Positions 1 through 10,036 of a stretch of 34,479 nt of DNA are shown here, in pieces. Origin of the DNA: a virus (taxonomy: Duplodnaviria > Heunggongvirae > Uroviricota > Caudoviricetes); the IMG/VR virus record IMGVR_UViG_2778261675_000005; one strand, written 5' to 3'. The notes beneath the pieces were generated by a model. The model made no database searches. It had not been told where the DNA came from and saw nothing but the letters and a program-made list of their open reading frames with translations. How positions within the stretch are numbered: position 1 is the stretch's first letter; every line of letters starts with the position of its first letter. A program made the position numbers and the translations under genes.

Positions 1-1011
1 TTATAACGTCACTCCGCCTTTTAGAGGATTCAGCGCGACGGCATTTTGCAGGTAGTCAGGCGCAAGGTGCGCATAGGCCATCGTCTGCTGAATGCTCGCA
101 TGTCCCAGAATCTGTTGCAGTGCGATTATATTGCCCCCATTCATCATGAAATGGCTTGCGAATGTATGCCGCAGGATGTGGGTTGCCTGATTGGGTGGTA
201 TATCTGGCTTCACTCTGCGTAAAATCCCGCAAAACTTCTCATAATCAACTTTGAATAATTTAGCGCTGGCCTCCTCTTTAACTTTTTTCTCCAGTTCCTC
301 AGAAATCGGCACGGTTCGCTTTTTACCGTTTTTGGTTTTCAGGAAGGTAACCCTGCAATTTGTAATCTGTGCTGGTTTTAGCGTGGCAACTTCCGTCCAT
401 CTTCCTCCAGTGCTCAGACATAAAAGTGCGACAAGTAAGTCATCACCATCCAAAACATTTAACAGTTTTTCGATTTCTGCTTTTTCCAGGAACGTCATTT
501 CAGGGTTGGCCTCCGCCAGTGGCGGCAGTCCGTGAATTGGGTGTTGCCCGGAAAATTCATCCAATTGAATTAATTTTGTGAACATGCCGGATAATCGGTA
601 CATGTCACGGTTTATCGTTGCGGCACTGATACCATCACGTAGTCGCATGGAACGATAATCCATCAAAGCTCTTTTGCTCATCCGGCTCACTGGTATATCA
701 CCTATGCCGCTGATGGTTTTGAGCAGATGATTAAACTCTTTTGTTCCATGCTCGTGGTTTTGCCCGTGATATTTCCACCAGATGTTCAGCAACTCACTCA
801 AAGTTCTGCGATCTGCTCGCTGACCTGCCCATTCTTTCTGGCTGGCGTAGGCGATTGTGTATCGCTCAAATGCTACAGCCTCAGCTTTTCTTTCAAATTT
901 CCTGCGGATGCGTTTTCCGTCGCGACCGCGAGGTCTAATGTCCACTTCATAGCGTCCATCATCGAGCTTCTTAATTGACATAAGAAAGCCCTCTGACGCT
1001 GTATTCACCAT
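1..1011 (-). CDS. int: P2-type tyrosine integrase (complete; stop codon is the first 3 bases of the window)
   Basis: 336-aa ORF; C-terminal tyrosine-recombinase motifs (HTFASHF...LGH...TMAYAHL); sits at the prophage left end next to the C repressor as in P2. Confidence 0.9.
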   Translation of the reverse strand: MVNTASEGFLMSIKKLDDGRYEVDIRPRGRDGKRIRRKFERKAEAVAFERYTIAYASQKEWAGQRADRRTLSELLNIWWKYHGQNHEHGTKEFNHLLKTISGIGDIPVSRMSKRALMDYRSMRLRDGISAATINRDMYRLSGMFTKLIQLDEFSGQHPIHGLPPLAEANPEMTFLEKAEIEKLLNVLDGDDLLVALLCLSTGGRWTEVATLKPAQITNCRVTFLKTKNGKKRTVPISEELEKKVKEEASAKLFKVDYEKFCGILRRVKPDIPPNQATHILRHTFASHFMMNGGNIIALQQILGHASIQQTMAYAHLAPDYLQNAVALNPLKGGVTL

Positions 1012-1050
1012 CTTGGTAACAAATGGTGAAAATGTAATGTTTATAGAGTG

Positions 1051-1344
1051 TTAACCAGTCTGTTTTTCGGAGTGGTCTGATTCTGTTGGTTTTTGCCCAA
1101 TGTGTGCGAGAGCCGGCGCGATCTGACCAGCTTGTGGTGACGTATCACCAGTCATTAACCAGAGCGTATATTTTTTAAATAAAGGCGTATTTGTGACTCG
1201 CATAACGATGCTGAGACCAGGGTCTTTATGCCCACTTTCGTAATTTTTGACTGTTCCTAGAGCTATCCCGCTAATTTCGCTGAATTTCGCCTGTGTTAAG
1301 CCTTCTGCTTTCCTAATCGCTTTCAGTTTTTCGAATGTCTGCAT
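1051..1344 (-). CDS. C: P2 C-type immunity repressor (small HTH protein)
   Basis: 97 aa; divergent from cox; C-terminal stretch SGQIAPALAHIGQ resembles P2 C as I recall it; helix-turn-helix-like N-terminus. Confidence 0.8.
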   Translation of the reverse strand: MQTFEKLKAIRKAEGLTQAKFSEISGIALGTVKNYESGHKDPGLSIVMRVTNTPLFKKYTLWLMTGDTSPQAGQIAPALAHIGQKPTESDHSEKQTG

Positions 1345-3028: not shown

Positions 3029-3253
3029 ATGCCGGACAACATAGATTTTATTCAGGAACAACAGGCTGAATTACTGGAGCGCCAGATTAACGCGGCAAGG
3101 GTAAAACATTGCGGTGTTTCTGCGCTGGTTTGCGAAGAGTGTGACGCGCCAATACCTGCTGCCCGTCGTGCAGCTTATCCGTCAGCCACGCGTTGTGTTT
3201 CCTGCCAGTCAGTCTTTGAAGCAAAAAACAAGCATTACCGGAGAATGGCATGA
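3029..3253 (+). CDS. TraR/DksA-family C4 zinc-finger protein (P2 orf82 position)
   Basis: 74 aa; CxxC...CxxC (CEECDAPI...RCVSCQ) typical of the phage TraR/DksA-like zinc finger. Confidence 0.7.
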   Translation: MPDNIDFIQEQQAELLERQINAARVKHCGVSALVCEECDAPIPAARRAAYPSATRCVSCQSVFEAKNKHYRRMA

Positions 3254-3525
3254 GTATTCGTATTGAAATTGGCGAACGTTATGTCGTTACCAGTGACAGC
3301 TTTCAGTTTATTCTCCACGAGAAAAAGAGAGCGGAAAGCGGTAAAAACGCCGGTCAGGAATGGCTGGCGGTGGTTGGTTATTACCCGAAATTAAGCCAGC
3401 TCGTTTCCGGCCTGATGCATCACGATATTCTGACCGGAAGCGCAAAGTCTTTTGCTGATTTAAACGCGCAGGTTGAGCAACTCAGCAAGCGTTGTTCTGA
3501 GGCTTTTGGCTCATATGGCCGTTAA
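3250..3525 (+). CDS. hypothetical early protein (P2 orf83 position)
   Basis: 91-aa ORF, ATGA overlap upstream; 3' end overlaps the probable A start. Confidence 0.55.
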   Translation: MSIRIEIGERYVVTSDSFQFILHEKKRAESGKNAGQEWLAVVGYYPKLSQLVSGLMHHDILTGSAKSFADLNAQVEQLSKRCSEAFGSYGR

Positions 3526-5800
3526 AGCCTCCGGGCGTTTTGTCCCTCCGTCAGCATTTGCCGCAGGCACCGGTAAGGCGTTTACCGGTGCTTATGCATG
3601 GAACGCGCCACGCGAGGCTGTCGGGCGCGAAAGACCTCTTACACGTGACGAGATGCGTCAGGTGCAAGGTGTTTTATCCACGATTAACCGCCTGCCTTAC
3701 TTTTTGCGCTCGCTGTTTACTTCACGCTATGACTACATACGGCGCAATAAAAGCCCGGTGCACGGGTTTTATTTCCTCACATCCACTTTTCAGCGTCGTT
3801 TATGGCCGCGCATTGAGCGTGTGAATCAGCGCCATGAAATGAACACCGACGCGTCGTTGCTGTTTCTGGCAGAGCGTGACCACTATGCGCGCCTGCCTGG
3901 AATGAATGACAAGGAGCTGAAAAAGTTTGCCGCCCGTATTTCATCGCAGCTTTTCATGATGTATGAGGAACTCAGCGATGCCTGGGTGGATGCGCATGGC
4001 GAAAAAGAATCGCTGTTTACGGATGAGGCGCAGGCTCACCTCTATGGTCATGTTGCTGGCGCTGCACGTGCTTTCAATATTTCCCCTCTCTACTGGAAAA
4101 AATACCGTAAAGGGCAGATGACCACGAGGCAGGCATATTCTGCCATTGCCCGTCTGTTTAACGATGAGTGGTGGACTCATCAGCTTAAAGGCCAGCGTAT
4201 GCGCTGGCATGAAGCGTTACTGATAGCTGTCGGGGAGGTCAATAAAGACCGTTCTCCTTATGCCAGTAAACACGCCATTCGTGATGTGCGTGCGCGCCGC
4301 CAGGCAAATCTGGAATTTCTTAAATCGTGTGACCTTGAAAACAGGGAAACCGGCGAGCGCATCGACCTTATCAGTAAGGTGATGGGCAGTATTTCTAATC
4401 CTGAAATTCGCCGGATGGAGCTGATGAACACCATTGCCGGTATTGAGCGTTACGCCGCCGCAGAGGGTGATGTGGGGATGTTTATCACGCTGACCGCGCC
4501 GTCAAAGTATCACCCGACTCGTCAGGTCAGAAAAGGCGAAAGTAAAACTGTTCAGCTTAATCACGGCTGGAACGATGAGGCATTTAATCCAAAGGATGCG
4601 CAGCGTTATCTCTGCCGCATCTGGAGCCTGATGCGCACGGCATTCAAGGATAATGATTTACAGGTCTACGGTTTGCGTGTCGTCGAGCCACACCACGACG
4701 GAACGCCGCACTGGCATATGATGCTTTTTTGTAATCCACGCCAGCGTAACCAGATTATCGAAATCATGCGTCGCTATGCGCTCAAAGAGGATGGTGACGA
4801 AAGAGGAGCCGCGCGAAACCGTTTTCAGGCAAAGCACCTTAACCGGGGCGGTGCTGCGGGATATATCGCGAAATACATTTCAAAAAATATCGACGGCTAT
4901 GCACTGGATGGTCAGCTCGATAACGATACCGGTAAGCCGCTTAAAGATACTGCCGCGGCTGTTACCGCATGGGCGTCAACGTGGCGCATCCCGCAATTTA
5001 AAACGGTTGGACTGCCGACAATGGGGGCTTACCGTGAACTACGCAAATTGCCTCGCGGCGTCAGTATTGCTGATGAGTTTGACGAACGCGTCGAGGCTGC
5101 TCGCGCTGCCGCAGACAGTGGTGATTTTGCGTTGTATATCAGCGCGCAGGGTGGGGCAAATGTCCCGCGCGATTGTCAGACTGTCAGGGTTGCCCGTAGC
5201 CCGTCGAGTGACGTTAACGAGTACGAGGAAGAAGTCGAGAGAGTGGTCGGTATTTACGCGCCGCATCTCGGCGCGCGTCATATTCATATCACCAGAACGA
5301 CGGACTGGCGCATTGTGCCGAAAGTTCCGGTCGTTGAGCCTTTGACTTTAAAAAGCGGCATCGCCGCGCCTCGGAGTCCTGTCAATAACTGTGGAAAGCT
5401 CACCGGTGGTGATACTTCGTTACCGGCTCCCACACCTTCTGAACACGCCGCAGCAGTGCTTAATCTGGTTGATGACGGTGTTATCGAATGGAATGACACG
5501 GAGGTCGTGAGGGCGCTCAGGGGGGCATTAAAACACGACCTGAGAACACCAAATCGTCAGCAAAGAAACGGAAGCCCGTTAAAACCACATGAAATTGCAC
5601 CATCGGCCAGACTGGCCCGGTCGGAAAGAATGCAAATTACCCGTATCCGCGTTGACCTTGCTCAGAACGGTATCAGGCCGCAGCGATGGGAGCTTGAGGC
5701 GCTGGCGCGTGGAGCGACCGTAAATTATGACGGTAAAAAATTCATGTATCCGGTCGCTGATGAGTGGCCGGGATTCTCAAAAGTAATGGAGTGGACATGA
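3515..5800 (+). CDS. A: replication initiation endonuclease A (rolling-circle initiator)
   Basis: Large ORF in the P2 gpA position; I place the start at the ATG at 3515 (MAVKASGRF...) rather than the track's upstream ATG at 3473, which would overlap most of the previous ORF; conserved HxH-like block (PHWHMMLF) and catalytic-tyrosine region (GYIAKYISKN) typical of rolling-circle initiators. Confidence 0.85.
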   Translation: MAVKASGRFVPPSAFAAGTGKAFTGAYAWNAPREAVGRERPLTRDEMRQVQGVLSTINRLPYFLRSLFTSRYDYIRRNKSPVHGFYFLTSTFQRRLWPRIERVNQRHEMNTDASLLFLAERDHYARLPGMNDKELKKFAARISSQLFMMYEELSDAWVDAHGEKESLFTDEAQAHLYGHVAGAARAFNISPLYWKKYRKGQMTTRQAYSAIARLFNDEWWTHQLKGQRMRWHEALLIAVGEVNKDRSPYASKHAIRDVRARRQANLEFLKSCDLENRETGERIDLISKVMGSISNPEIRRMELMNTIAGIERYAAAEGDVGMFITLTAPSKYHPTRQVRKGESKTVQLNHGWNDEAFNPKDAQRYLCRIWSLMRTAFKDNDLQVYGLRVVEPHHDGTPHWHMMLFCNPRQRNQIIEIMRRYALKEDGDERGAARNRFQAKHLNRGGAAGYIAKYISKNIDGYALDGQLDNDTGKPLKDTAAAVTAWASTWRIPQFKTVGLPTMGAYRELRKLPRGVSIADEFDERVEAARAAADSGDFALYISAQGGANVPRDCQTVRVARSPSSDVNEYEEEVERVVGIYAPHLGARHIHITRTTDWRIVPKVPVVEPLTLKSGIAAPRSPVNNCGKLTGGDTSLPAPTPSEHAAAVLNLVDDGVIEWNDTEVVRALRGALKHDLRTPNRQQRNGSPLKPHEIAPSARLARSERMQITRIRVDLAQNGIRPQRWELEALARGATVNYDGKKFMYPVADEWPGFSKVMEWT

Positions 5801-6252
5801 TGGCAAAAATTCACGAGGTAAAGCTGCACGCAAAATATTTTGACCTTGTGCTAGAAGGAAAGAAACGCGCAGAGTTTCGGAAAAATGACCGTAATTATGA
5901 GCGCGGGGACACGTTGATTTTGCATGAATGGGGGCAGGGGGTGTATACGGGGCGAAAGGTTGAAGCCCGGATAACAGATGTTACTGACCTGTCAGACTGG
6001 CTGGAAGATTATGTCTTGCTAAGTATTGAGCTGCTTAATACAGGCGCATATGAGATTGTGAACTGGAAAGAACTTAGTGAGCGTGGTCTGGTATTCAGAA
6101 TTAATCATGAAATTATGCATCAGCTCGGCCTTGCTGTCATGTATGAACCAGAGACGGGGATGTCTGGCGGGGCAATGGTTGCCACGGATGGAGCATGGAA
6201 CTATTCGGACGAACAGATTGAGTGTGCAAAGCAAAACGGGTGGCTTGGATAA
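5797..6252 (+). CDS. DUF3850/ASCH-like domain protein
   Basis: ATG at 5797 overlaps A stop (ATGA); N-terminal ~60 aa (KIHEVKLHAKYFDLVLEGKKRAEFRKNDRNYERGDTLILHEW) matches the DUF3850 fold pattern as I recall it. Confidence 0.6.
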   Translation: MMAKIHEVKLHAKYFDLVLEGKKRAEFRKNDRNYERGDTLILHEWGQGVYTGRKVEARITDVTDLSDWLEDYVLLSIELLNTGAYEIVNWKELSERGLVFRINHEIMHQLGLAVMYEPETGMSGGAMVATDGAWNYSDEQIECAKQNGWLG

Positions 6253-6458
6253 TGCACAGAATACCAGGCGAGATACCGCAACATAACACTAAAAATATCA
6301 AGCTGATGGCTATTGTTCACCGTCTACAGCAGATTATGGTCAACGAAAATCTGACGCCTGACGAGCTGGTCGGGTGTGCCGAAATAGTCCGGGATAATTA
6401 CGGGCGGCTTAATTATATCCGTCAGTCCAGAGTTGCTCCACCGTCACGCAGACTATAG
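6252..6458 (+). CDS. small hypothetical protein
   Basis: 68-aa ORF starting at an ATG overlapping the upstream stop (TAATG); no recognisable domain. Confidence 0.35.
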   Translation: MHRIPGEIPQHNTKNIKLMAIVHRLQQIMVNENLTPDELVGCAEIVRDNYGRLNYIRQSRVAPPSRRL

Positions 6459-6658
6459 AAAACGCCGTCAGTCTTGAAACTTGTTTTCAGGGCTGGCGGG
6501 GTTGAACAACGAGCATCGCGAGGCGTTAGTGGTTTTCAGTATGTGTGTTATATGTGATAGGTTGCTTCCTAACGTATTTCATGTTTCTATGGAAAAAGAC
6601 TAAAAAACATGGTAAAGAAGCAAAAAACGCATAGAATGTTGTTAAATTTATTTAGATT

Positions 6659-7786
6659 ATGGTGTATGAAATGCCACTGACTGTCTTAGAACCATTCAAA
6701 ACACAGATGATTTCCCCAGATGAATTAATCTTGGATGCTAAAAACCCAAGACTTTATAACGGGAAAAGTTTTAATGACAATGCCGACCCGCACGAACTGG
6801 TTAAGGCTCTCTCTGATACAGCTGATTTGGAGGAGTTGATTAAATCCATATCAGAGAATGGATATATGTCAATTGAACCTTTAATTGTCATGAAAAAAGG
6901 TGCCAAATATGTTGTTTTAGAGGGAAATCGTCGTTTAGCAGCGATCAAATTACTTACTGAGCCGGGTTTGGCACAAAAGTGTCGTGTTGTTGTTCCTAAA
7001 AACTTGGACGCTCGTGTTATAGATAGTTTGAAAGAAGTGGCTGTATATCTAGTAAATGATGAGTCAGAGGCTCGTTCATTTATTGGATTTAAGCATGTAA
7101 ATGGTCCACATAAGTGGGATTCTTTTGCTAAAGCGCAATTTGCATATAAATGGTTTGTAAGTGAAAGGGCAAATGGGCTTACAATAGACGATATAACAAA
7201 AAAACTCGGTGATAGTAATAATACTGTGCGTTCTATTGTTAGTGCTATGTTTGTACTTGAACAAGCAAAAAATCAGGAGGTATATGATATTCACGCTGAT
7301 CGCATGTCTCCAAAATTTTCATTTTCACACTTATATACTGCATTAAATAGGTCTGAATATAAAGACTTCTTGGGGCTCGAGAGAGATTGGAATGTTACTC
7401 TTAAAGATAACCCTGTCCCATCGCAGAATATTGATAAACTTAAAGATGTTCTTACTGGTCTTTATGGTTATAAAAAAGATAAAAGAGCTTCTTTAATTTC
7501 TTCACAGAATCCGGATTTAAAATATTTTGGCGAGGTTTTGGCTAATGAGGCCTCATACGAAGCCTTTAAGTCTGGGGTTGAAAGTCTGTCTGAATTATAT
7601 AAACAGGCCGGAGATCCACTTCAACACATCAAGGATGCTTTTCTGGAGATAAACAAGCAGCTTGATACTATATCTTCTGTTCTTGATAGAACTGATTCGT
7701 TAGATGACACAACGAAGAACTACATCGAACAATTTAAGAAAAAAGTATTGAAGGTTCAATTTCAATTGCAGAGTATTGAGGAATAA
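6659..7786 (+). CDS. ParB/Srx N-terminal-domain protein (candidate defense component)
   Basis: 375 aa, AT-rich; N-terminal 100 aa follow the ParB N-domain pattern (ILDAKNPRL ... LEELIKSISENGYMSIEPLIV ... YVVLEGNRRLAAIKLL, i.e. the GxxRxxA arginine box); C-terminal ~270 aa unassigned with a coiled-coil-like tail; alternative start at 6671. Confidence 0.7.
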   Translation: MVYEMPLTVLEPFKTQMISPDELILDAKNPRLYNGKSFNDNADPHELVKALSDTADLEELIKSISENGYMSIEPLIVMKKGAKYVVLEGNRRLAAIKLLTEPGLAQKCRVVVPKNLDARVIDSLKEVAVYLVNDESEARSFIGFKHVNGPHKWDSFAKAQFAYKWFVSERANGLTIDDITKKLGDSNNTVRSIVSAMFVLEQAKNQEVYDIHADRMSPKFSFSHLYTALNRSEYKDFLGLERDWNVTLKDNPVPSQNIDKLKDVLTGLYGYKKDKRASLISSQNPDLKYFGEVLANEASYEAFKSGVESLSELYKQAGDPLQHIKDAFLEINKQLDTISSVLDRTDSLDDTTKNYIEQFKKKVLKVQFQLQSIEE

Positions 7787-7789
7787 TAA

Positions 7790-8809
7790 ATGCAGTTGTT
7801 ACCTTATCCGGAGAGTCATCATATTCAAGTTAAATTAGATTGGCTTGAATTATCATGTTTATCGAATATTTACTTTACTGTGCGTATTTCTGAGTTAAGA
7901 AATATTCTGGAGAATTTAGATTCGTTTACATCTTCTGATATAGGTGAGGAAGATGCTGAAGTAGAGAATGAAATACAACGATTACTGGAACAATATCAGC
8001 AAAGAAAAGATATTTTGGGTGAAAGTTATCCATTTGTTTTTAATGAAGAAACACTTTGTCTTGAGTTAATGGAAGGTACATTGGAACAACTGACAGTTGA
8101 CCAACATATCTATTTATACTGCTTGTATTTTTCTCATATGTCAGCATCACGATTATTTAGTGGTTTGGAAAGTCCTACAAACCAGCAACGGGATTTATTA
8201 CAGATTGCTGCAACTATTGCTTTGGCTGGTTATGTTCAAGGCCATAGTATTTCATTCGGTTGGCCAAGACCAGATAGCTCAAGATTTTATGATGCGTTAA
8301 CTAGGGCTATTGATTTAATAGGAGAGGGCAGAGTAAAATCTCTGGCTGATGTAAATCGCTATTTACAGTCTAGGCCTCATAAAGATGCTGGTATTGATGT
8401 TATTGCATGGAAGGATAATAATCCTCGCGATATGTTTCCTGGTAATAAGCTTATTTATTTTGCACAAGTTGCTAGCGGAAATGACTGGCGCTCTAAAGCA
8501 GTAAAAGAAGACATTGCTGTTATACAAAATCACTGGTTGTCGCAAAGAATATATAGAATAATTGACGCGATTGTTATTCCATTTGATTTCGAAAGTGATG
8601 ATGAATCTATAAAAAAAGATCATATCTCTTTGATAGCCGAGGAGTTTGGAGCAGTGTTGCATAGGCTACGGTTGCCAACTTGTTTTAAGAGGGGCTTAGA
8701 GCTTTTAGTTTCTAACCCTGAGTTGCTGATAGAAAGGGGAAATGAAATAAATAATATTTCACAATATGTAATATCAACAACCGCAACGTTACAACAAGAA
8801 GCGGCCTAA
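7790..8809 (+). CDS. hypothetical protein, possible Mrr/PD-(D/E)xK-like nuclease fold (candidate defense component)
   Basis: 339 aa, AT-rich, GAGGA RBS, start 4 nt after the upstream stop (operon); segment HKDAGIDVIAWKD...KLIYFAQVASG is reminiscent of the Mrr-type restriction-endonuclease core, but the assignment is tentative. Confidence 0.55.
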   Translation: MQLLPYPESHHIQVKLDWLELSCLSNIYFTVRISELRNILENLDSFTSSDIGEEDAEVENEIQRLLEQYQQRKDILGESYPFVFNEETLCLELMEGTLEQLTVDQHIYLYCLYFSHMSASRLFSGLESPTNQQRDLLQIAATIALAGYVQGHSISFGWPRPDSSRFYDALTRAIDLIGEGRVKSLADVNRYLQSRPHKDAGIDVIAWKDNNPRDMFPGNKLIYFAQVASGNDWRSKAVKEDIAVIQNHWLSQRIYRIIDAIVIPFDFESDDESIKKDHISLIAEEFGAVLHRLRLPTCFKRGLELLVSNPELLIERGNEINNISQYVISTTATLQQEAA

Positions 8810-8818
8810 TATTAGGCC
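8803..8818. terminator. perfect 16-bp palindrome GGCCTAATATTAGGCC, probable bidirectional terminator
   Basis: Palindrome read directly; contains the stop codons of both convergent genes; T-run follows on the + strand. Confidence 0.5.
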
Positions 8819-9819
8819 GTTTTAATTGCTTTTTTTTCAATCGGAATTTTACTTTCAGATTCCAATATGTCTACAGTAAATAGTGACTCTGGCATTCTTA
8901 ATCGAGAATCAGCGATCATGAGCTCTTTTCCAACTTTAGCCTGGTTCATCACATAGCTTATCTCTACCGCTCTTGTGCCATGTTTTGAATATAACTCATG
9001 CACTAATGGATGGTCATCATAAGAAATTAGCCAGCGGTTCGCATAACCGGCTATATATTCCTTAAGCTCTCGATGCTGTATGTCATCGAAACAAAAGTTT
9101 TTAGAATAAATGTTTCTGCCCTCTTTAACATAGGGAGGGTCTAGATAAACAAAGTCATTTTCGTAATTGTCTTTGTTATCAAATCGTTTTAAAAAATCAA
9201 TACAATGTTCATTATAAACAAATATAGATTCACGCATGCTCGCTATTTTTTCGAGCTTTTTAATAAGGGTGCTTACAGTGTATCTACAATCAATTTTATA
9301 TTTTCCAGATTGGTCTAAACCACCAATTGGCCCTGCGCTTAGTACTCCAGATCTATTTGTCCTATTTAAATAAAAAACACTGAATCCGTACTCGAGTTTA
9401 GTGTACTTAGTAGGATCAGTAATACTTGACTGATAAATTCTCTTTTGTTTATGCCATTCATCGATACATGGTATATTCTGATATACCATATCTAACAGAT
9501 TGTCGGTGTTGTTAATTAATTGATCCCAAAAACAAAATAAAGCATAGTTCTTGTCATTTAAGTGGATCTCTTTGACATATCCACCCAATAGCAGTGAAAG
9601 CGATGCACCAGCGCCGCCGCAAAATGGTTCAATAAACCGTGCGCCATTTAACTTATTATGCATGAGGAAAATAGCGAGAAATGAAGCAAGCTTGTCCTTG
9701 CCACCTGGATAGCGGAATGGTGAGCTGGCTCTAGGGATGTCGTGAACCCCAAACAACTTGCGTACTGATTTTTTGCTAAGTTGTTTTATTGCTTCATGTT
9801 CAAGGATTCTCTGATCCAT
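8812..9819 (-). CDS. Dam-like (D12-class) N6-adenine DNA methyltransferase
   Basis: 335 aa; SAM-binding motifs FRYPGGK and EPFCGGAG plus catalytic DPPY; AT-rich; convergent with the upstream operon. Confidence 0.85.
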   Translation of the reverse strand: MDQRILEHEAIKQLSKKSVRKLFGVHDIPRASSPFRYPGGKDKLASFLAIFLMHNKLNGARFIEPFCGGAGASLSLLLGGYVKEIHLNDKNYALFCFWDQLINNTDNLLDMVYQNIPCIDEWHKQKRIYQSSITDPTKYTKLEYGFSVFYLNRTNRSGVLSAGPIGGLDQSGKYKIDCRYTVSTLIKKLEKIASMRESIFVYNEHCIDFLKRFDNKDNYENDFVYLDPPYVKEGRNIYSKNFCFDDIQHRELKEYIAGYANRWLISYDDHPLVHELYSKHGTRAVEISYVMNQAKVGKELMIADSRLRMPESLFTVDILESESKIPIEKKAIKTA

Positions 9820-10017
9820 GTGCCACCGTTACTATTATGAAAAATATTTCTATTATCGCATGCGTCATTGCTTCCTGCAATCAGGGTAGCGCATGTATCT
9901 ATAGCGTGCGTGGATTTGCATTTATGTTCTTTGGTCTCTAACTCTTTTGTATGGTAATCCCCAAGGGGGTTTGATTACTTAATTCAACCGCATTAAAACC
10001 GGCTCATGAAGCGGGCG

Positions 10018-10036
10018 GGCGAGGCGGGGAAAGCAC
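10018..10036. other. putative cos cohesive-end site
   Basis: GC-rich 19-mer GGCGAGGCGGGGAAAGCAC in the intergenic region just beyond Q, matching my recollection of the P2 cohesive end; not verified. Confidence 0.5.

Follow-up and report, generated by a model that had tools for sequence, protein, structure and literature searches.

The window analysed here is a 34,479-nucleotide stretch of tailed-phage DNA (Caudoviricetes; IMG/VR record IMGVR_UViG_2778261675_000005) in which the rolling-circle initiator gene A is followed by two short genes, ORF1 and ORF2, and by a structured element, E, at the edge of a variable hotspot (Table 1).

Table 1. Features between the end of gene A and the left edge of the hotspot, in window positions
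Feature	Position	Strand	Remarks
A/ORF1 junction	5788..5802	+	GGAG, tandem ATGs and A stop; from the sequence
GGAG, Shine-Dalgarno-like site	5788-5791	+	5 nt 5′ of ATG 5797
Gene A stop, TGA	5798-5800	+	Read from the sequence
ORF1, 151 aa	5797..6252	+	Two domains; full-length form of P2 orf91 (PHROG 1812)
DUF3850 / minimal ASCH (PUA-like beta-barrel)	5809..6027	+	ORF1 residues 5-77
DUF7415	6055..6237	+	ORF1 residues ~87-147; two helices, beta-hairpin, one helix; not in P2 orf91
ORF1 stop, TAA	6250-6252	+	From the sequence
ORF2, 68 aa	6252..6458	+	PSP3 gp37 / PHROG 11386 family; stop TAG 6456-6458
Element E, 70 nt	6460..6529	+	Conserved and structured; begins directly 3′ of the ORF2 stop
E helix 1	6463-6501	+	15 pairs, loop CUUGU
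E putative helix 2	6505-6527	+

Overlapping genes in the phage backbone

The two ORFs that the first-pass annotation described after A lie at the positions given, with the ATGA and TAATG overlaps present, and its proposal that the two genes are translationally coupled to A is consistent with these overlapping stop and start codons. ORF1 has two candidate starts, ATG 5797 (ATGA overlap with A) and ATG 5800 (TGATG overlap). Because the second is kept in all 57 related loci, whereas the first is frequently absent (ACATAATG, ACATCATG, ACATTATG), ATG 5800 is probably the conserved start. ORF2 begins at ATG 6252 with a 1-nt overlap, and this TAATG arrangement is the most frequent ORF1/ORF2 junction in Peduovirus-type loci (47 of 81 ORF2 upstream sequences). 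Judged from its codons, the layout can let ribosomes leaving A, and then ORF1, re-initiate at the overlapping starts.

Base composition agrees with the earlier description of a GC-balanced pair beside an AT-rich island. GC is 0.467 in ORF1, 0.478 in ORF2 and 0.53 in A, against 0.36 in the island (6531-9950), and GC3 is 0.48-0.50 for the pair compared with 0.25-0.29 for island genes. The order A-ORF1-ORF2, with the same overlaps, is constant in at least 55 Peduovirus loci in IMG/VR, so the pair is indeed kept 3′ of A in other P2-like phages. Since the two genes combine backbone-like GC with constant synteny, while the DNA after 6529 varies from phage to phage, they appear to be older residents than the island, as first suggested. 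Of 5,426 complete E. coli genomes, 345 carry the whole block, and RefSeq annotates the pair in them; the genes are ordinary and already catalogued. An E. coli O25b:H4 prophage lacks both genes, and the S56 prophage lacks ORF1 and retains only a remnant of ORF2. Neither ORF matched a PADLOC-DB 2.0 defence profile at E <= 0.01; PD-Lambda-5 A and B were matched by island genes instead, and by its sequence the pair lies outside the defence cargo.

Domains, families and relatives of the two proteins

The DUF3850-like N-terminal segment noted at first pass was recovered well above cut-off, with matches to Pfam DUF3850 (PF12961, E 5.6e-18, 65.3 bits, cut-off 22.9) and ASCH (PF04266, E 3.8e-11, 44 bits, cut-off 21.2). 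The phrog_1812 profile covers residues 2-150 on positions 1-150 of 150 (E 5.5e-82), and phrog_15982 matches residues 4-81. The AlphaFold2 model of ORF1 has a mean pLDDT of 92.5, and the DUF3850 domain adopts a PUA-like beta-barrel fold. The ASCH octapeptide, defined as G-x-K-x-x-[ETS]-x-R (PMC9599836), is intact in the translation as G21-K-K23-R-A-E26-F-R28 and is followed by the DUF3850 family motif N30-D31-R32; an alignment of 46 diverse DUF3850 proteins contains ~19 invariant columns, the octapeptide columns included. The pN/pS of this N-terminal domain is 0.24.

The remainder of ORF1, previously described as an extension of ~90 residues, instead comprises ~74 residues and is itself a Pfam domain: residues 87-129 match DUF7415 (PF24187) at E 2e-14 and 54 bits (cut-off 27). 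Its motif, W-x-ELS-x-RGL-x-x-RIN-x-EI-x-H-x-LGLA…G-x-S-x-GA…DG-x-W-x-Y, is invariant or nearly so across a 37-sequence alignment, and this half is weakly constrained within Peduovirus (pN/pS 0.62, near out-of-frame values). Sequence and profile searches of DUF7415 against the PDB returned no significant match. DUF3850 and DUF7415 occur fused in either order, as in ORF1 and in P0163 (DUF7415 then DUF3850). DUF7415 is also fused to a PF04447 dATP/dGTP pyrophosphohydrolase and, directly 5′ of A in locus L084, to the P2 Orf83-type domain DUF5405; in a T4-like Klebsiella phage, a stand-alone copy separates nrdD from nrdG. The supposed extension is evidently a separate, widely distributed domain that the first reading overlooked.

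ORF2 consists of a core that is conserved (residues 1-53) and a tail that is variable, basic (pI 10) and rich in Pro and Arg; it matches phrog_11386 over residues 1-67 on profile positions 1-68 of 69 (E 2e-40). Searches of Pfam, NCBIfam and the PDB gave no match, and some RefSeq phage records leave the gene unannotated. The first-pass annotation made conservation of this small frame a check on its reading; ORF2 is conserved, in >195 protein clusters across Enterobacteriaceae and under purifying selection, with an in-frame pN/pS of 0.157 compared with 0.91 and 1.42 in the other frames, 20 columns invariant across genera, and tail indels that keep the frame. It always lies directly 5′ of the boundary hairpin E. 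In Salmonella phage PSP3 (Eganvirus), the ORF2 homologue gp37 (81% identity over 58 residues) is likewise followed directly by E, but it is located after tumA/tumB, in the SOS operon, rather than after ORF1, comes with a Shine-Dalgarno site of its own, and stands between two direct E copies 405 nt apart. As far as such comparisons tell, ORF2 belongs to the PSP3 gp37 family as a small protein in its own right and not an obligate partner of ORF1, a point missed at first pass.

The earlier impression that P2 has nothing similar here proved mistaken. P2 carries the same gene, orf91 (NP_046796, whose annotation reads DUF3850 domain-containing protein), in the same place, with the same overlap of the A stop and the same DUF3850 domain. 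The A/orf91 DNA of P2 is ~95% identical to the window, over the first ~225 nt of ORF1, up to 6020, where the tin-old cassette begins. P2 Orf91, at 109 aa compared with 151 aa for ORF1, switches to unrelated sequence past codon ~75, beside tin/old, and therefore lacks DUF7415; ORF2 and hairpin E are also missing from P2. In P2 the tin-old cassette has replaced everything past orf91 codon ~75. In Wphi, vB_YpM_50, P22H4, 12474-type and other Peduovirus phages, by comparison, the A-ORF1-ORF2-E block is present at 93-97% DNA identity. Wphi DNA is ~95% identical to the window up to ~6530, but several 1-nt indels in its 2003 record disrupt the reading frames, giving gp91 (93 aa) and gp92 (64 aa); sequencing errors are the probable source of these indels.

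A conserved hairpin at the hotspot edge

Element E contains a hairpin with strong covariation (covariance model 96 bits). Homology among P2/186-like phages stops at its final base, 6529 (…GCGTTAG), where the variable hotspot starts, with 53 unrelated cargo junctions beyond. The covariance model located one copy in the window, none at the right edge of the cargo and none in P2. Locus L135 carries two inverted copies, apparently from a rearrangement around a transposase gene.

Several readings of E were considered. An intrinsic (Rho-independent) terminator is rejected: E lacks a U-tract, with GGUUGAACAACGAG after the stem, and a terminator scan makes no call; the true terminator of phage 186, t95b, is ~23 nt farther downstream of E. 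The one Rfam match, to RybB and in the reverse orientation, is at chance level (14.3 bits, E 7.1; gathering score 40). E resembles integron attC sites in its AAC…GTT termini and in forming an imperfect, strand-asymmetric hairpin, but these have RYYYAAC … GTTRRRY cores and conserve structure only, whereas in E the bases after GTTAG are random and the sequence is highly conserved; no IntI-type integrase was noticed among the ORFs read. A long-range AACGCC/GGCGTT helix closing the element is not supported, since on our reading of the alignments uncompensated single changes in L011, L028 and L212 break it. A second nickase cleavage site for A (HUH) at the boundary is rejected: the P2/186 ori nick regions share just the 7-mer CGCCTCG with the E complement, and this falls inside helix 2, not at the boundary.

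We offer tentatively, and regard as rather improbable, the idea that E is either a docking site where defence cassettes are swapped site-specifically in the cos-proximal P2/186-like hotspot or a new 3′-UTR RNA module. Under the first option, every cargo would be attached at the base following …GCGTTAG, and ORF2 plus E would itself be a cassette, as the tumB-E-ORF2-E arrangement of PSP3-type phages might suggest; the hotspot would then, if this is true, resemble a miniature integron in its workings, operating via a folded single strand or RNA. Under the second, E would act as an RNA processing or stability signal shielding the early or SOS operon from downstream cargo.

Proposed role of the pair and its alternatives

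Our main reading, to which we assign a probability of roughly 0.5, is that the two ORFs are accessory genes, conserved but non-essential, that close the early replication operon of a P2-like (Peduovirus) prophage at its 3′ end, with a role in nucleic-acid or nucleotide transactions. They would be non-essential because P2 lacks the DUF7415 half and ORF2, and the O25b:H4 and S56 prophages lack the genes; a preprint terms P2 orf91 'an essential protein', with data not given (10.1101/2025.08.28.672839). Our best guess for ORF1 is a nucleic acid- or nucleotide-binding accessory protein rather than a YqfB-type amidohydrolase. Produced in step with the A initiator, it would use the conserved ASCH pocket (H6, K9, G21-x-K23-x-x-E26-x-R28, N30-D31-R32, D38, E44) to bind a ligand that may be single-stranded nucleic acid, a nucleotide or a modified base. 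DUF7415, recurring beside or fused to nucleotide- or replication-related proteins, may serve as a small partner or adaptor module, and the two domains, whose fusion in either order points to a functional link, could jointly tune DNA/RNA or nucleotide metabolism of the phage at an early stage of infection. Further nucleotide or replication associations come from a stand-alone DUF3850 gene that overlaps the A start in some 186-like loci (L059) and from DUF3850 fused to ParB-CTPase folds co-encoded with ParA (10.1101/2025.10.10.680097). The acidity of ORF1 (pI 5.1) is unusual for a general nucleic-acid binder and counts against the binding proposal, as does the weak constraint on its DUF7415 half within Peduovirus. 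Outside the P2 family, DUF3850 occupies scattered accessory slots, near polynucleotide kinase in T1-like phages, near RNA ligase and Gam in a Listeria phage, between tail-tube genes in a T7-like phage and in a mycobacteriophage early operon; the slot beside A may therefore merely be a permissive operon end. The literature searched yielded no functional work, in phages, on P2 orf91, DUF3850 or DUF7415.

ORF1, and perhaps ORF2, might instead be an early anti-defence or host-takeover protein, acting for example by binding RNA or nucleotide signals or by nucleic-acid mimicry rather than in replication. ORF1 is small, acidic and early-expressed and adjoins a defence hotspot, and the 'moron'-like slots of DUF3850 in unrelated phages twice lie near RNA repair genes (polynucleotide kinase, RNA ligase). 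The ParB-CTPase survey also suggested such a role for the phage ParB-DUF3850 fusions (PNAS 2025; 10.1101/2025.10.10.680097). These proteins carry the same module as ORF1, likewise in phages and prophages, but as the C-terminal appendage of a CTP-binding fold, whereas ORF1 joins it to DUF7415 and is coupled to a rolling-circle initiator. Anti-defence is nonetheless unlikely in our view, given that ORF1 resembles no characterised anti-defence protein and is conserved whichever cargo comes next.

Catalytic roles are suggested by two characterised relatives, E. coli YqfB, an N4-acetylcytidine (ac4C) amidohydrolase, and the Zymomonas mobilis ASCH protein (ZmASCH), a single-stranded-RNA ribonuclease, which share the ASCH/PUA-like fold and octapeptide region with ORF1 but only 15% and 12% identity, respectively; ORF1 lacks the C-terminal part of these ~103-143-residue proteins. 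That ORF1 degrades or processes RNA as a single-strand-specific ribonuclease seems quite unlikely in view of this weak likeness to ZmASCH, the shortened form of ASCH that DUF3850 represents (~77 residues), and the closest structure, PDB 3IUW, a structural-genomics entry for an Enterococcus faecalis 'activating signal cointegrator' ASCH protein, which is a single 83-residue domain without DUF7415 and without assigned activity. Still more remote is a YqfB-type amidohydrolase deacylating N4-acetylcytidine or a related nucleoside in nucleotide salvage or sanitation. YqfB catalysis uses Lys21, Thr24 and Arg26 with Glu74 as the acid (PMC9599836); aligning GRKTITIR with GKKRAEFR, ORF1 retains the Lys and Arg but has Glu26 in place of the nucleophile Thr24, and its DUF3850 domain ends at about residue 79, apparently ahead of the segment bearing Glu74, with an unrelated domain thereafter. 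Least tenable is that ORF2 is a chance ORF or non-coding spacer, and/or that the pair belongs to mobile defence cargo: the missing database matches and annotations would fit, but frame-specific constraint, invariant columns, frame-keeping indels, the Shine-Dalgarno site in the PSP3-type context, the backbone-like GC of ORF2 and a cargo boundary 71 nt 3′ of its stop all argue against it.

In hotspot surveys, all DNA from gpA to gpQ is taken to hold candidate loci (Rousset et al. 2022, PMC9122126). The ORF pair should be counted as phage backbone, not defence cargo, whenever such hotspots are mined, and E fixes the left hotspot boundary with single-nucleotide precision, providing an anchor for cargo cataloguing and a lead on clean cargo swapping. 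In most P2-like phages, the genes after A are an intact P2 orf91 and a gp37-like protein, conserved and uncharacterised. The recurrent pairing of DUF3850 with DUF7415, together with the ties that link DUF7415 with MazG-like pyrophosphohydrolases, with NrdD/NrdG and with the flanks of A, offers a handle on two widespread, uncharacterised phage domains.

Overlapping genes downstream of A

The window is a Peduovirus (P2-like) prophage, best matched by E. coli OkiPb01676 (99.9%), in which ORF1 and ORF2 directly follow the rolling-circle replication initiator gene A (table). The first-pass annotation had described two ORFs with overlapping starts, and the junctions bear this out: A and ORF1 meet at GGAG-N5-ATGATG, ORF1 and ORF2 at TAATG, the most frequent ORF1/ORF2 junction among Peduovirus-type loci. 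Across 57 related loci the second ORF1 ATG is always kept and the first often missing (ACATAATG, ACATCATG, ACATTATG), so ATG 5800, which overlaps the A stop as TGATG, is probably the conserved initiator. Judged from sequence, both overlaps fit re-initiation coupling. Both proteins are 100% identical in two IMG/VR contigs.

Features of the window and of two related loci
Feature	Coordinates	Strand	Locus	Description
A stop codon	5798-5800	+	window	TGA, from sequence
ORF1	5797-6252	+	window	151 aa
ORF2	6252-6458	+	window	68 aa
E	6460-6529	+	window	conserved structured element, 70 nt, directly 3′ of ORF2 stop
ParB_N-like protein	6659-7786		window	PD-Lambda-5_A, E 7e-23
Extra 339-aa ORF	7790-8809		window	between ParB_N-like and methyltransferase genes; PHROG 14650; no Pfam/PADLOC match
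D12/Dam-type methyltransferase	8812-9819	−	window	PD-Lambda-5_B, E 5e-94
cos	10018-10036		window	P2-type cohesive-end sequence GGCGAGGCGGGGAAAGCAC
Stand-alone DUF3850 gene	744-1052		L059, 186/PSP3-like prophage	overlaps A start
P2 Orf83-type DUF5405 + DUF7415 fusion	573-1046		L084, 186/PSP3-like prophage	directly upstream of A

The DUF3850-like N-terminus proposed at first reading was recovered by Pfam (DUF3850, residues 5-77, E 5.6e-18; ASCH, same residues, E 3.8e-11), together with a C-terminal DUF7415 (residues 87-129, E 2e-14), and PHROG 1812 matches the entire protein end to end (E 5.5e-82). The ASCH octapeptide, as defined in PMC9599836, is complete (G21-K-K23-R-A-E26-F-R28), and ORF1 keeps all of the ~19 invariant, mainly charged or polar columns of 46 diverse DUF3850 proteins. 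At low divergence, pN/pS is 0.24 in the N-domain and 0.62 in the C-domain.

ORF2 found no relative in Pfam, NCBIfam or PDB searches; PHROG 11386 matches it at full length (E 2e-40). Conservation, on which the first-pass annotation had made the standing of this small ORF depend, is extensive: homologues in Escherichia, Salmonella, Citrobacter, Klebsiella, Enterobacter and Buttiauxella make up more than 195 protein clusters, with residues 1-53 strongly conserved (20 invariant columns) and a variable, Pro/Arg-rich tail carrying frame-preserving indels. Because pN/pS is 0.157 in frame, indicating purifying selection, versus 0.91 and 1.42 out of frame (pooled, 57 distinct sequences), ORF2 is, on sequence evidence, a genuine gene. 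It is not an obligate partner of ORF1, since in PSP3/186-type (Eganvirus) loci, which lack ORF1, its homologue lies after tumA/tumB and has a Shine-Dalgarno site to itself.

The pair in P2, its relatives and E. coli prophages

The observation of the pair was thus confirmed and its interpretation was right in part; what failed was the claim that P2 has nothing similar. P2 orf91, an annotated DUF3850 protein, overlaps the A stop in the same manner as ORF1. Its DNA is ~95% identical to the window up to 6020, where P2 switches to the tin-old region, so that P2 keeps only the ASCH domain followed by an unrelated tail. Similarity to the window ends at ~6290 in L-413C and ~6422 in 12474-type phages, and reaches ~6530 in most phages compared. 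In Wphi (L001, NC_005056, 4389-5030), several single-base indels relative to the window and all recent relatives split and shift the gp91/gp92 frames; the 2003 entry probably contains sequencing errors here, which makes its published calls unreliable.

The block is matched in 603 of 5,426 complete E. coli genomes, 345 of them over at least 80% of its length, and in RefSeq its genes appear as 'replication endonuclease', 'DUF3850 domain-containing protein' and 'hypothetical protein'. An E. coli O25b:H4 prophage (L230) lacks ORF1, ORF2 and E, and the S56 prophage has lost ORF1 and holds only a fragment of ORF2. A preprint terms P2 orf91 'essential', giving no data (10.1101/2025.08.28.672839); the distribution among prophages would argue against universal essentiality. 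In L230, a partial second copy of the region encoding the A C-terminus (3113-3393) follows the intact gene, which suggests that the hotspot edge has been rearranged there. Both ORFs being already catalogued members of uncharacterised families, the pair itself is ordinary.

Candidate roles for ORF1

Among 1.84 billion representative proteins searched, 5,105 relatives were detected (E <= 0.001), mostly single-domain. DUF7415 is fused to a PF04447 dATP/dGTP pyrophosphohydrolase (2 of 22 proteins scanned) and to a ClpX-type zinc finger; one protein (P0163) carries it N-terminal to DUF3850, the reverse of ORF1. It matches stand-alone proteins in many T4-like Klebsiella and Enterobacter phages, often beside nrdD; in Klebsiella phage ValerieMcCarty02 (L086, 2477-2710) the protein, annotated 'MazG-like', lies between nrdD and nrdG, the anaerobic ribonucleotide reductase genes. 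Fusion partners of DUF3850 are DUF551, HTH domains and ParB-CTPase folds, the last encoded alongside ParA (10.1101/2025.10.10.680097). No PADLOC defence profile matched ORF1 or ORF2. In phage 186, a PAPS-reductase-like gene, orf84, lies just upstream of A, and its translation is annotated as needed for that of A.

The best-supported reading is that ORF1 would be an accessory early-operon protein, its ASCH pocket binding single-stranded nucleic acid, a nucleotide or a modified base, and DUF7415 serving as a putative partner or adaptor domain linked to nucleotide and replication functions. Its main rival, an anti-defence or takeover protein, draws on the small size, acidity (pI 5.1) and predicted early expression of ORF1, and on the scattered accessory slots that DUF3850 genes occupy in unrelated phages. 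An RNase resembling ZmASCH is possible, and a YqfB-like amidohydrolase is unlikely because Glu26 of ORF1 stands where YqfB has its nucleophile, Thr24.

Element E at the left edge of the hotspot

Element E occurs in 68 phage records, all P2/186-like (Peduoviridae), unannotated in most records listed, and is conserved in Peduovirus and Eganvirus loci alike; no Rfam family matches it. As + strand RNA it folds at −32.7 kcal/mol (z −3.3; 0/200 shuffles equally good), versus −14.3 kcal/mol (z 0.13) for the − strand, which folds poorly because many pairs are G-U wobbles. Among 41 distinct sequences, including phage 186 and representatives of Citrobacter, Enterobacter and Trabulsiella species, the 15 pairs of helix 1 are 97% paired and covary strongly, eight varying on both sides; slid controls are 25-46% paired, and none of 500 shuffles reached four of five whole-structure measures, two reaching the fifth. 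The putative second helix (AAC..C-GA-GC-NNN-GC-GA-G..GUU) shows G-U changes on one side only, and its tandem G-A pairs become Watson-Crick in L021 and PSP3 copy 1. An intrinsic terminator was rejected, as E has no U-run; phage 186 has t95b ~23 nt further on.

E begins a few nucleotides past the stop of the last gene, be it ORF2, tumB, orf97, a 66-aa ORF or A. A single copy is present in the window and none in P2; in PSP3-type phages, ORF2 lies between two direct copies spaced 405 nt apart. In L135 (3860-6307), an inverted tumA-tumB-E pair surrounds a 406-aa transposase-like gene; the arrangement seems to stem from rearrangement at an insertion sequence rather than from E itself.

Beyond E lies an AT-rich island (6659-9819, GC 0.36) resembling the PD-Lambda-5 defence system, and the position of cos delimits the cargo to about 6530-9900, between E and the TGCAT-rich cos flank; in cargo-less phages a terminator lies between E and cos, ~210 nt away. 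P2/186-like homology stops precisely at the last base of E; the right boundary, close to cos, is less sharp. In the 219 copies, the sequence downstream of …TTAG (30 nt) sorts into 53 unrelated classes, and no base is favoured even at its first position. This sharp left edge, shared among phages, suggests either site-specific cargo exchange at E or a strongly constrained operon-end RNA module, and it is E, beside the ORF pair, that merits follow-up.
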